Shown here one piece after another: positions 8,448-53,765 of a DNA stretch of 64,000 bases (the stretch's first letter is position 1; the number at the start of each line of letters is the position of its first letter). Position numbers and translations under genes: made by a program. This DNA is from Escherichia coli (GTDB taxonomy: Bacteria; Pseudomonadota; Gammaproteobacteria; Enterobacterales; Enterobacteriaceae), in NCBI RefSeq assembly GCF_003790525.1, contig NZ_CP033635.1; one strand, given 5' to 3'. The notes under the pieces were generated by a model. The model searched no databases. It saw nothing but the letters and a program-made list of their open reading frames with translations, and had not been told where the DNA came from.

Positions 8448-8556
8448 GTGCCGGATGCGATGCTGGCGCATCTTGTCCGGCCTACGGGGTGCGCAATTTG
8501 TTGATGTTGTTGTGTTTTGTAGGCCGGATAAGGCGTTTACGCCACATCCGGCACTT
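8448..8556. repeat. REP (repetitive extragenic palindrome) cluster
   Basis: gccggatgcg...cttgtccggcctac and taggccggataaggcgtttacgccacatccggcac: typical E. coli REP consensus units in an intergenic gap. Confidence 0.6.
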
Positions 8557-47094: not shown

Positions 47095-48646
<1,552 letters not shown>

Positions 48647-50477: not shown

Positions 50478-51101
50478 TTAATCCAGTTGCGTAATATCAA
50501 AAGCGGCGCGGTCGATCACCGCAATGATCTTTTTTATTTGTGCATCAGTGATATCGCTCTGGTTGACGCGTAAATCCAGCACCGCTTTAAAATTATCCAG
50601 CGCCCGCTTCATTTGCGGGTTCTGGCGCAGCGCAGCGCCAACGCAACGCGATTTGATGCGTTCTTCAATCATCTCTACCTGTTCGCGGTTTTCTTCCAGC
50701 CACTGCGCGCCTTGTTCGGTCAGCGCAATCTGCTTCTTACCACCTTCCTCTTCGCGAATGGTAATCAGCGACTGCTCCTGCAGAAAATCCAGCGTTGGGT
50801 AGATGACGCCCGGGCTTGGGGTGTAATTCCCCTGGGTTAGATTCTCAATCGCTTTAATCAATTCGTAACCGTGGCTGTCATCGCGCGAGAGAATATCCAG
50901 AATCACCAGACGTAATTCACCGTGACCAAAGAAACGTTGCCGACGACCGCCGCCGCGACCGTGGCGACCACCGCAGCATTGACCGTGTTCATGCTGGTGA
51001 CCGTGTCCGCAGTGCTCGTGTTCTGACTTCTCACCTTTGCAGCAGCCCTCATGGCGTGGCTGGCCTTCATGTTTACAACACCCTTCGTGATGATGGCTCA
51101 T
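50478..51101 (-). CDS. yqjI: PadR-family Ni/Fe-responsive repressor
   Basis: 207-aa ORF with a His/Cys-rich N-terminus MSHHHEGCCKHEGQPRHEGCCKGEKSEHEHCGHGHQHEHG and a PadR winged-HTH. Confidence 0.88.
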   Translation of the reverse strand: MSHHHEGCCKHEGQPRHEGCCKGEKSEHEHCGHGHQHEHGQCCGGRHGRGGGRRQRFFGHGELRLVILDILSRDDSHGYELIKAIENLTQGNYTPSPGVIYPTLDFLQEQSLITIREEEGGKKQIALTEQGAQWLEENREQVEMIEERIKSRCVGAALRQNPQMKRALDNFKAVLDLRVNQSDITDAQIKKIIAVIDRAAFDITQLD

Positions 51102-51122
51102 ATCAGCCTCCTTTTGCTTAAT

Positions 51123-51136
51123 TAGATATATCTAAT
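51123..51136. promoter_or_regulatory. palindromic TTAGATATATCTAA motif (candidate YqjI operator) at the yqjI promoter
   Basis: Perfect palindrome ttagatatatctaa just upstream of the yqjI start; a related copy ttagatatatctga lies at about 51351-51364 upstream of yqjH. Confidence 0.35.
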
Positions 51137-51200
51137 TTATATCTGATATGAGCACTCTTGCAAGAATAAAAATGATTTTTAAATGTGGCTCATCTCACAC

Positions 51201-51280
51201 GTAGGCCGGATAAGGCGTTCACGCCGCATCCGACATTGAGCAATGATGCTTGATAAGAGGTTGCGCGTCTTATCAGACTA
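51201..51280. repeat. REP element
   Basis: gtaggccggataaggcgttcacgccgcatccgaca in the yqjI-yqjH intergenic region. Confidence 0.5.
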
Positions 51281-51313
51281 CAGATATATCAGTTCTACAA
51301 ATCGCTTGCATTT

Positions 51314-51338
51314 ATCATGATTAACAATCATTATCATT
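51314..51338. promoter_or_regulatory. candidate Fur box upstream of yqjH
   Basis: atcatgattaacaatcattatcatt resembles the Fur consensus (GATAATGATAATCATTATC). yqjH encodes a ferric-siderophore reductase. Confidence 0.35.
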
Positions 51339-51387
51339 TACGAAAATTATTTAGATATATCTGATTACTATCACGAAGGCGATAACA

Positions 51388-52152
51388 ATGAATAACTCCC
51401 CCCGCTACCCGCAGCGCGTTCGCAATGATCTGCGCTTCCGTGAACTGACTGTGTTACGCGTTGAGCGCATCAGCGCCGGTTTTCAGCGCATTGTCCTCGG
51501 CGGCGAGGCGCTGGACGGTTTTACGTCGCGCGGCTTTGACGATCACAGCAAACTCTTCTTTCCTCAACCTGACGCTCACTTTGTGCCGCCAACGGTAACG
51601 GAAGAGGGCATCGTCTGGCCGGAAGGACCACGCCCACCGTCGCGTGACTATACGCCGCTGTATGACGAACTACGCCATGAACTGGCGATCGATTTCTTTA
51701 TTCACGACGGTGGGGTCGCCAGCGGCTGGGCGATGCAGGCGAAACCGGGCGATAAACTTACGGTGGCAGGTCCGCGCGGTTCGCTGGTGGTGCCGGAAGA
51801 TTACGCGTATCAGCTGTATGTCTGCGATGAATCCGGAATGCCCGCACTGCGCCGCCGCCTGGAAACGTTGAGCAAACTTGCCGTTAAACCGCAAGTTAGT
51901 GCGCTGGTTAGCGTGCGGGATAACGCCTGTCAGGATTATCTCGCGCACCTTGATGGTTTTAATATCGAATGGCTGGCACATGATGAGCAGGCGGTAGATG
52001 CGCGTCTGGCGCAGATGCAAATCCCTGCCGATGATTACTTCATCTGGATAACCGGCGAAGGCAAAGTCGTTAAGAATTTAAGCCGCCGCTTTGAAGCGGA
52101 ACAGTATGACCCACAGCGGGTACGTGCAGCGGCTTACTGGCACGCAAAGTAA
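51388..52152 (+). CDS. yqjH: NADPH-dependent ferric-siderophore reductase
   Basis: 254-aa ORF MNNSPRYPQRVRNDLRFRELTVLRVERISAGFQRIVLGGEALDGF... Confidence 0.88.
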   Translation: MNNSPRYPQRVRNDLRFRELTVLRVERISAGFQRIVLGGEALDGFTSRGFDDHSKLFFPQPDAHFVPPTVTEEGIVWPEGPRPPSRDYTPLYDELRHELAIDFFIHDGGVASGWAMQAKPGDKLTVAGPRGSLVVPEDYAYQLYVCDESGMPALRRRLETLSKLAVKPQVSALVSVRDNACQDYLAHLDGFNIEWLAHDEQAVDARLAQMQIPADDYFIWITGEGKVVKNLSRRFEAEQYDPQRVRAAAYWHAK

Positions 52153-52168
52153 CTGATATATATAAAGA

Positions 52169-52196
52169 AAAAGGCTGACGATTTCTCGTCAGCCTT
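52169..52196. terminator. bidirectional rho-independent terminator (yqjH / ileX)
   Basis: Hairpin aaaggctgacg-atttct-cgtcagccttt flanked by A-run on one side and T-run on the other. Confidence 0.5.
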
Positions 52197-52205
52197 TGCT
52201 ATGTC

Positions 52206-52253
52206 TGGTGGCCCCTGCTGGACTTGAACCAGCGACCAAGCGATTATGAGTCA
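52206..52253 (-). other. ileX: 3' partial copy (about 47 nt) of tRNA-Ile2 (ileX, CAU anticodon): island att junction
   Basis: Minus-strand read gives ...GACTCATAATCGCTTGGTCGCTGGTTCAAGTCCAGCAGGGGCCACCA, i.e. anticodon loop, T-arm, acceptor 3' strand and CCA. The 5' half (acceptor/D-arm) is absent; the upstream sequence diverges. Confidence 0.75.
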
Positions 52254-52448: not shown

Positions 52449-53765
52449 ATGGCCGTCAATCTTACTGAAACAGCCATCCGAGCATTGAAAGCAAAAAAGA
52501 CATCGTTCTATGTCTGGAGCAACAGCTCTCAACGTGGCACTGGACGACTTGGTGTCAAAGTTCAGCCTTCTGGCAGCAAGATTTTCTATTTCCGCTATTA
52601 CGTGGAAAAAGGGAAAAAAGAAAGATTCATTCAATTGGGTATATGGCCTGAGATGAAACTGGCCACAGCGAATGAACTGACAAAAAAGTATGGTGCCTGG
52701 CTCATTGAAGGAAAGGATCCCCAGGCAGAACTGGAACGACAACAGTTTGCAGAACAGCAGCGGATACAACTCCATCAATCACAGGGCTCATTTGAAGCAT
52801 TGATTCATGGTTATGTTAACAAAATGAAAATTGATAATAAGAGGACATGGCAGGATGTTCTGAAACGCCTTGAAAATGAATGCTATACAGTGATCCCCCG
52901 TGAAACTAAAGCTAAAGATGTGACTTCCGGACAGATTAAACATATCCTGGCCGGGATCATTCAGCGCGGTGCTGTGGTTCACTCTAACCGGATCCGTTCT
53001 TACCTGATGGCTGCATTTAACTATGGACTGAAAGCAGATAACGATCCGATGAACACAAGTGTAGGGATTACTTTTGGGCTGGAGGCAAATCCGGTGTCAG
53101 TGATACCGAAACAGTCATCTGCTGAAAAAGTCGGTGATACCTGGCTGACACTTGAAGAGTTGCGTTTTCTAATGGAACATTTTGCTGAAGCAACCAACGT
53201 TGGATTATTGATGCAACATTTGATCCGATTCTGTATCTATACCGGAGGGCAACGTCCTTTCGAAATGATCGCCAGTCAGTGGTGTGATGTTGATTTTCAA
53301 CAAAAAACGCTGCTGGTGACTGCTGATGTCTCTAAAAATAAACGAGAGCATTTGATACCGTTGACTGAATCAGCATTACAGGAATTATCCTGTGTGCAGG
53401 AGTTAACAAAAGAAAAATCCAGCCCTTACATTTTTCCACTTTCGACTAATGGTAAGCGTCCGGTTCGTACGGACAGTCTGGCTCGCGCTATCATGTATTT
53501 CCGGGCTTTTAATCCTGACTTTAAAATTTTTACAGCACGTGACTTACGTCGGACCTGTAAAACGTTAATGGGAGAAGCTGGGATCAGTAAGGAAATCCGC
53601 GATCGTATTCAAAATCATGCGTTGAACGATGTCAGTTCAAAACATTATGATCGATACGATTATTTGCCAGAAAAACGCAGAGCACTTGAGATCTGGGAGG
53701 ACCGGGTTAATAACTATCAACAGCAAACAGGCAATAATGTTGTCAATCTGTTTGGCAGAAGGTGA
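52449..53765 (+). CDS. P4-type tyrosine recombinase / phage integrase
   Basis: 438-aa ORF MAVNLTETAIRALKAKKTSFYVWSNSSQRGTGRLGVKVQPSGSKIFYFRYYV... (typical N-terminal arm-binding region of P4-like integrases); the C-terminal region contains R, H and Y residues compatible with a tyrosine-recombinase catalytic core; adjacent to the tRNA fragment. Confidence 0.9.
   Translation: MAVNLTETAIRALKAKKTSFYVWSNSSQRGTGRLGVKVQPSGSKIFYFRYYVEKGKKERFIQLGIWPEMKLATANELTKKYGAWLIEGKDPQAELERQQFAEQQRIQLHQSQGSFEALIHGYVNKMKIDNKRTWQDVLKRLENECYTVIPRETKAKDVTSGQIKHILAGIIQRGAVVHSNRIRSYLMAAFNYGLKADNDPMNTSVGITFGLEANPVSVIPKQSSAEKVGDTWLTLEELRFLMEHFAEATNVGLLMQHLIRFCIYTGGQRPFEMIASQWCDVDFQQKTLLVTADVSKNKREHLIPLTESALQELSCVQELTKEKSSPYIFPLSTNGKRPVRTDSLARAIMYFRAFNPDFKIFTARDLRRTCKTLMGEAGISKEIRDRIQNHALNDVSSKHYDRYDYLPEKRRALEIWEDRVNNYQQQTGNNVVNLFGRR

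Follow-up and report, generated by a model that had tools for sequence, protein, structure and literature searches.

The divergent nfeR-nfeF (yqjI-yqjH) control region of an Escherichia coli genome: predicted NfeR operators, a Fur-like box cluster and their conservation

The nfeR-nfeF locus and its predicted NfeR operators

The divergently transcribed genes nfeR (yqjI) and nfeF (yqjH) of Escherichia coli share a short intergenic region, which we analyzed in a stretch of 64,000 nucleotides from contig NZ_CP033635.1 (the window; all coordinates refer to this 64-kb stretch). The two coding sequences leave between them a gap of 286 bp (51102-51387). On the minus strand, nfeR (50478-51101) is a full-length open reading frame (ORF) of 207 aa with 99% identity to K-12 b3071, and it encodes a PadR-family repressor with a His/Cys-rich N-terminal extension, the Pfam domain PF03551 (PadR) being present in its homologues. 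On the plus strand, nfeF (51388-52152) is likewise a full-length ORF, of 254 aa, with 99.2% identity to K-12 NfeF (b3070), and encodes a siderophore-interacting ferric reductase, in the homologues of which the domains PF08021 and PF04954 were found. A Shine-Dalgarno sequence could be read in front of each gene, AGGAGG at 51107-51112 (minus strand), 5 nt upstream of the ATG of yqjI, and GAAGG at 51375-51379 (plus strand) for yqjH, where CGAAGGC is kept across genera. The gene order of K-12, in which the neighbours are aer-nfeR on one side and nfeF-ileX-mug on the other, is kept around the window locus, where patA, aer and nfeR are followed across the gap by nfeF and then by ileX. With its divergent orthologues of a PadR-family nfeR and a SIP-type ferric reductase nfeF, the locus belongs to the nfeR-nfeF control regions of Enterobacteriaceae. 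The gap is the native divergent promoter/operator region of the two genes, which has already been characterized and in which little is new.

Two copies of a palindromic motif were found in the gap, one near each gene. The copy on the yqjI side is an 18-bp perfect palindrome, AATTAGATATATCTAATT, at 51120-51137, whose arms are 100% complementary and whose core, GATATATC, occupies 51125-51132. The copy on the yqjH side, TATTTAGATATATCTGATTA at 51348-51367 with its core at 51354-51361, has its centre about 30 bp before the yqjH ATG, downstream of the predicted yqjH -10 and about 16 bp past the predicted start (about 51341-51343). We regard both as predicted NfeR operators, and we take them to be the sites that the literature labels 'site II' (yqjI side) and 'site I' (yqjH side). 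The first-pass annotation of this DNA had placed two motif copies by the divergent promoters and had described the first as a perfect palindrome. Both statements stood, as did the position of the second copy, TTAGATATATCTGA at 51351-51364, which departs from the palindrome at one place; the first copy, TTAGATATATCTAA within the 18-bp palindrome, lies at 51122-51135, one base off the coordinates that had been given for it. The two copies extend to a direct repeat of 26 nt with 85% identity, 229 bp apart.

The exact 12-mer TTAGATATATCT has three strand-matches in the window, all of them in the gap, where 0.00 were expected from 100 shuffles, and every one of the three GATATATC octamers of the 64 kb falls inside the 286-bp gap (0.72 expected window-wide). 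A motif search that allowed up to 2 mismatches was uninformative, its 5 matches in the window not being above chance (2.95 expected), and exact and matrix tests took its place. The NfeR matrix was built from 41 distinct 20-mers of non-Escherichia sequences only, and is for this reason independent of the window. It gave 31.5 bits to the yqjI-side operator, the top score of the window, and 27.4 bits to the yqjH-side operator, the second; the third-best match, also in the gap, scored 7.5 bits and the best one outside the gap 5.3. The cross-genus set yielded the operator consensus AATTTAGATATATCTAAATT, in which the core GATATATC is invariant.

Next to the yqjI-side palindrome we noticed an auxiliary half-site, TATATCTGATAT at 51138-51149, set off from the main core by 11 bp, or one helical turn, and overlapping the yqjI -10. 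Most non-Escherichia loci have an equivalent half-site, TAATTTATATCTAA, at the same 11 bp from the palindrome. We infer that the half-site is an extension of the yqjI-side operator at which NfeR may also bind, and this would account for the footprint at the yqjI promoter, which in the 2014 work of Wang and colleagues was reportedly extended. A third, weak copy of the motif (51277-51296, core GATATATC at 51283-51290, 7.5 bits) stands 16 nt upstream of the yqjH -35. This copy is polymorphic in E. coli, K-12 having GACATATC at the equivalent place, and its counterpart in other genera is a cTATATCAAAAAA block located 62-66 bp upstream of site I; possibly it serves as an auxiliary NfeR half-site.

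Predicted promoters, Fur-like boxes and conservation across genera

For yqjH we predict a -35 hexamer TTGCAT at 51306-51311 and, after a 17-nt spacer, a -10 hexamer CATTAT at 51329-51334 (both plus strand), the latter lying inside the Fur box and within a block that is invariant in all genera. A promoter scanner proposed TTAACA-18-AATTAT for nfeF instead, and this candidate was rejected, as its -10 falls in a non-conserved linker and TTGCAT-17-CATTAT is kept in all genera. For yqjI, on the minus strand, the predicted -10 is TATAAA at 51136-51141, located between the palindrome and the auxiliary half-site in a block, CTAATTTATATCTAA, that is kept across genera, and the predicted -35 is TTGCAA at 51158-51163, where GCAAG/GCAAT is kept at that offset across genera. 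Because TTGCAA and TATAAA lie 16 nt apart there, the predicted nfeR start (about 51129) falls near the centre of the palindrome. Both promoter assignments are drawn from conservation and are to be read as predictions.

With the hexamers TTGCAT and CATTAT so placed, the predicted Fur-box cluster at 51312-51341 covers the spacer and the -10 of yqjH. It consists of overlapping matches at 51317-51335 (plus strand), 51323-51341 (minus strand), 51312-51326 and 51322-51336. When the 19-bp consensus GATAATGATAATCATTATC was used as the model, the best 19-mers were 51323-51341 (14/19) and 51317-51335 (13/19), and the Fur-box-like 19-mer annotated earlier at 51314-51338 was thus approximately right. Under the 7-1-7 Fur model, 51322-51336 scored 12/14, the window's single best match, and its neighbour 51312-51326 scored 11/14. 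We also applied a 19-bp Fur matrix, refined from the upstream regions of 12 classical K-12 Fur-repressed promoters (fepA-fes, fepD-entS, fepB-entC, fhuA, cirA, tonB, fecI, exbB, fiu, fhuE, ryhB and fhuF). With this matrix 51323-51341 scored 15.3 bits, which ranks second among 127,964 window positions and falls within the leave-one-out range of the 12 training promoters (3.1-24.5), and the overlapping 51317-51335 scored 13.0 bits. The two matches start 6 bp apart (51317 and 51323), over the predicted spacer and -10, and genuine Fur sites have been described as overlapping at 3- or 6-bp offsets (PMC2189734). A second, weak Fur-like block, the AT-rich AAGAATAAAAATGATTTTTAAATGT at 51162-51186, is present upstream of the yqjI -35 with 12.0 and 9.5 bits by the Fur matrix, and within it AAAAATGATTTTTAA is invariant within Escherichia. 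Away from the gap, a Fur-matrix match of 14.9 bits, ACAAATGATAACCACATTT at 48608-48626 (minus strand), was seen at the 5' end of the patA/ygjG frame and may be due to chance.

Conservation was examined in 48 usable nfeR-nfeF loci, drawn from a scan of representative genomes with NfeR (32 loci), 12 contigs reached through protein homologues, the window and five E. coli references. The genera covered were Escherichia, Salmonella, Citrobacter, Enterobacter, Lelliottia, Leclercia, Raoultella, Phytobacter, Huaxiibacter, Pseudenterobacter and Superficieibacter, plus two further lineages. Both palindromes are kept in all 48 loci, each of which has a divergent nfeF. Measured upstream from the site I core, the block AATCATTATCAT stands at 26-29 bp and is invariant across genera, and a CTTGCA hexamer follows at 47-50 bp in nearly all loci. 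The remaining spacer is unalignable between genera, its pairwise identity of 61% comparing with 58% in shuffled controls. The sole homologous locus without the palindromes is that of E. fergusonii, which also lacks nfeF. The contig has a truncated nfeR of 142 aa with a selB-like gene upstream, and neither nfeF nor the operator region is present; it looks like a lineage-specific deletion or rearrangement.

It may be argued that the block at 51312-51341 is the core promoter of nfeF and nothing else, that it holds no functional Fur site and that iron control of nfeF is indirect. The predicted -10 CATTAT indeed falls within the invariant AATCATTATCAT, genera differ in the left half of the Fur 19-mer, and the match to the plain consensus is only 13-14/19. 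However, the scores of 15.3 and 13.0 bits at a 6-bp offset form the clustered pattern of real Fur sites (PMC2189734), nfeF/yqjH is listed in the E. coli Fur regulon (PMC9508795, PMC9501238), and Salmonella yqjH is listed as Fur-regulated. We consider a promoter devoid of Fur very improbable, and retain a Fur site in the block as the preferred explanation.

The variable REP centre and the downstream island

Between the conserved ends of the Escherichia region lies a variable centre of about 80 bp, an inverted pair of repetitive extragenic palindromes (REP) at 51202-51281, which resembles a bacterial interspersed mosaic element (BIME) unit. Because this REP pair segment is dispersed, the control region used as a query matched each E. 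coli genome at a median of 36 places. In the window itself a 30-mer of the REP centre recurs at 8523 and 12872, and the centre folds with a z of -3.0. REP elements were reportedly noted here already in 2014 by Wang and colleagues, and found to be dispensable for YqjI regulation. The Rfam family naRNA4 (RF02564, the REP325-derived nucleoid-associated RNA) matched 51204-51279 with 50.7 bits and missed its gathering threshold of 59.5; the element was not filed as naRNA4, because the match reflects generic REP-pair similarity. Besides this sub-threshold match the Rfam scan of the region returned noise, and neither a riboswitch nor a small RNA (sRNA) explains the region.

The control region was found in 5,421 of 5,426 complete E. 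coli genomes. It varies much more than the genes that flank it, the differences being located in the REP centre and the linkers. In an alignment of five alleles, neither the palindromes nor the -35 nor the Fur block differ from K-12 MG1655 at any base, and the first ~64 bp, comprising the Shine-Dalgarno sequence, the yqjI-side operator and the auxiliary half-site, are invariant; substitutions and a length difference of 10-11 bp (276 vs 286/287 bp) are confined to the REP centre and short linkers. The K-12 region (K-12 coordinates 3,216,492-3,216,778) has the same flanking genes in the same orientation, its own REP centre and its operators likewise ~230 bp apart, but it measures 287 bp where the window has 286, carries GACATATC in place of GATATATC as the third motif copy and is without an island at ileX, whereas the window has one downstream of nfeF. 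The presence of these elements, their statistical significance, their conservation and their identity to K-12 are matters of direct observation, and the first-pass annotation was correct that the native regulatory region is intact. Agreement with the K-12 regulatory sites is to be understood as identity of sequence and not as a match of footprint coordinates. Allele lengths of 274, 276, 286 and 287 bp were met in E. coli, and the alleles look mosaic, that of the window matching DSM103246 on its flanks and ST131 in its centre.

Beyond nfeF, the sequence stays native up to 52252, which is 100 bp after the stop of yqjH, and diverges from 52253, as was seen in alignment with K-12 and with strain SC516, which has the identical intergenic allele and no island. 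The island junction had been put at 60 bp past the stop, which is too short; it falls within ileX (52252/52253). The last native bases, 52206-52252 (minus strand), are the 3' 47 nt of ileX, the gene for tRNA-Ile(CAU), and a tRNA search of the 64-kb window found no intact tRNA. A terminator-like hairpin (52170-52197, minus strand) that is identical in K-12 separates yqjH from ileX. At the start of the island an ORF with an NCBIfam integrase domain encodes a tyrosine integrase (52449-53765, plus strand). Of 5,426 complete E. coli genomes, 449 share this junction, and in those 449 the adjoining gene is annotated as integrase. In its island part the window shares 99.95% identity with the ~61-kb island of E. 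coli strain 20, in which an intact ileX stands at the far end beside mug, an end that lies outside the window. With an integrase next to the 47-nt 3' fragment of ileX here and an intact ileX at the far end in strain 20, the element is an island inserted at a tRNA gene. In strain 20 it carries raffinose/sucrose genes, a type I restriction-modification system, Ag43 and a CbtA/YeeU toxin-antitoxin pair. We rejected the idea that insertion of the island altered the control region, since the junction lies 865 bp from the nfeF start codon and past the terminator hairpin; at this distance from the promoters, and with the terminator between, the control region is left unaffected.

Metal-responsive repression and a possible loop between the operators

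In 2011 Wang and colleagues reportedly found YqjI to bind inverted repeats in both promoters, and the title of their paper names Fur as controlling yqjH transcription. From their 2011 and 2014 papers it is further reported that communication is required between the two sites, which are almost 200 bp apart, and in 2014 both operators were reportedly needed for full repression. The window sequence is fully compatible with this published NfeR/Fur mechanism. We hold it very probable that NfeR on two palindromic operators and Fur on the nfeF promoter, which together would give metal-responsive repression, account for the whole arrangement. The mechanism itself is published and not a discovery of this work, the identity of the binding proteins and the response to metal being taken from the literature. 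On this account NfeR, a PadR-family protein, would bind the two near-identical palindromic operators of consensus AATTTAGATATATCTAAATT. One of them (51120-51149 with the extra half-site) would lie over the predicted -10 and start of the nfeR promoter and the other (51348-51367) just past the predicted -10 of the nfeF promoter, and because operators sit at both promoters, binding of NfeR would shut off both genes. Nickel (or iron) on the His/Cys-rich N-terminal tail of NfeR would lower its affinity for DNA and relieve the repression. Independently, Fe(II)-Fur would occupy the overlapping boxes at 51312-51341, which cover the nfeF spacer and -10, and nfeF would thus also be repressed when iron is plentiful. 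The ~80-bp REP centre would have no required regulatory role, and the two operators may cooperate through a DNA loop.

The dual control of yqjH by nickel through NfeR and by iron through Fur, which the first-pass annotation had named, is supported by the identity of the genes, by the scores of the NfeR and Fur matrices and by published work. According to the part of PMC7981267 that summarizes the earlier Wang work, NfeR represses nfeF (and itself) and nickel relieves the repression; in Klebsiella, deletion of nfeR raises nfeF expression 85-fold (PMC7981267). Induction of nfeR by nickel is given in the same sources as the Fur regulon entry of nfeF (PMC9508795, PMC9501238).

Several observations weigh against so simple a scheme. 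Genomic SELEX (systematic evolution of ligands by exponential enrichment) with PepA, an aminopeptidase that also binds DNA, yielded one peak for the entire K-12 genome, and this peak is in the nfeF/nfeR spacer (PMC8249747), so that factors besides NfeR and Fur may act there. The exact allele of the window is rare, with at least 99% identity in 31 of 5,460 records and 86-95% in most, and intergenic identity to K-12 is only about 92% overall; the quantitative behaviour of this region could therefore differ. As judged by the plain consensus the Fur box reaches only 13-14/19, and it coincides with the AT-rich -10, so its conservation could be partly due to the promoter itself. Lastly, the motif string was absent from the literature searched, in which only unrelated insect and frog papers matched.

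The PepA peak also speaks for an explanation in which the palindromes chiefly serve another protein, such as PepA, and NfeR acts elsewhere in the region. Against this, the motif always adjoins nfeR and is duplicated at both of the promoters that NfeR reportedly represses, a dimeric winged-helix PadR protein suits a site of 2-fold symmetry, and the palindromes are the only strong conserved inverted repeats in the region; we rate this explanation a shade below even that of a Fur-less promoter. That the palindromes and the Fur-like 19-mer arose by chance in an AT-rich spacer and have no specific protein partners, as the base composition, the yield of the search with up to 2 mismatches and the 26 other 19-mers of the window that reach 13/19 to the Fur consensus might suggest, deserves practically no credence, being effectively refuted by conservation, with operators and Fur block invariant across genera although the spacer is unalignable, and being opposed also by the 12-mer expectation of 0.00, by the confinement of all three octamers to the gap and by matrix scores far above the rest of the window.

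The arrangement set out here, with NfeR on the palindromes and Fur on the nfeF promoter, has parallels in known systems. Like the classical Fur-repressed promoters (fhuF, ryhB, fecI, cirA and fepB-entC among others), the nfeF promoter has overlapping boxes over its -10 and spacer and a comparable matrix score, but its consensus match is weaker in the left half and an extra, independent repressor operator lies downstream. As in autoregulated divergent operators of the PadR family, a winged-helix regulator is encoded divergently from its target and a palindrome stands at both promoters. In contrast to those systems, the operator here is AT-rich and palindromic, has 20 bp with GATATATC as its core and is duplicated at ~97-230 bp across genera, and the effector of NfeR, according to the literature, is a metal on the His/Cys-rich N-terminal tail and not a phenolic ligand.

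Across the 48 loci the core-to-core distance between the operators falls into discrete classes of 96-97, 172-175, 182-185, 217-219 and 229-230 bp, and the 182-185-bp spacing occurs in at least 8 genera; Superficieibacter, with 166 bp, is an outlier and out of phase. The classes differ by about 10, 87, 35 and 45 bp, which are near whole turns of 10.8-11 bp, and a Rayleigh periodicity scan of the spacings peaks at 11.0-11.1 bp (R = 0.75). The helical-phase p was ~0.09 after related values had been collapsed by classes and ~0.04 by an event-based test; the sample is small, and the phasing is only suggestive and is kept as a suggestion. An exact consensus for integration host factor (IHF), WATCAANNNNTTR, was found at a fixed ~+60 from the yqjI-side core in six loci belonging to four non-Escherichia genera (Salmonella, three Citrobacter, Pseudenterobacter and Raoultella), the chance of this being ~2.5% per region. 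When the window's own spacer was searched for the IHF consensus, no exact site turned up, and the IHF idea is for this reason limited to the other genera.

The spacing classes and the IHF consensus sites would both fit a loop between the operators, and are offered here as hypotheses. The two NfeR operators might then be a phased pair that closes a repression loop, evolution keeping the helical register and not the sequence of the spacer, an idea which we put forward tentatively and think somewhat doubtful. Within it, one may further hypothesize that Escherichia acquired the REP pair in place of an IHF site, the loop being lengthened by ~3-4 turns. Like lac O1-O3, araO2-I1, gal OE-OI and deo, nfeR-nfeF combines two similar operators across a distance of tens to hundreds of bp, but in contrast to those systems looping by NfeR is only hypothesized, the phasing p being ~0.04-0.09 and Superficieibacter out of phase. 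If true, loop phasing would provide a testable physical basis for the communication between the sites that has already been proposed.

The auxiliary half-site, the weak third site, the second Fur-like block, the spacing classes and the IHF consensus sites are minor additions to the literature consulted, and they leave the accepted picture unchanged. The comparison across genera yields a usable 20-bp model of the NfeR operator, AATTTAGATATATCTAAATT, together with a conserved promoter geometry, and it hints at a constraint on the distance between the operators. For the strain studied here, the nickel/iron-responsive control of the ferric-siderophore reductase NfeF appears to be intact despite an island that begins ~100 bp downstream in ileX, and in annotating such genomes no regulatory disruption need be assumed.

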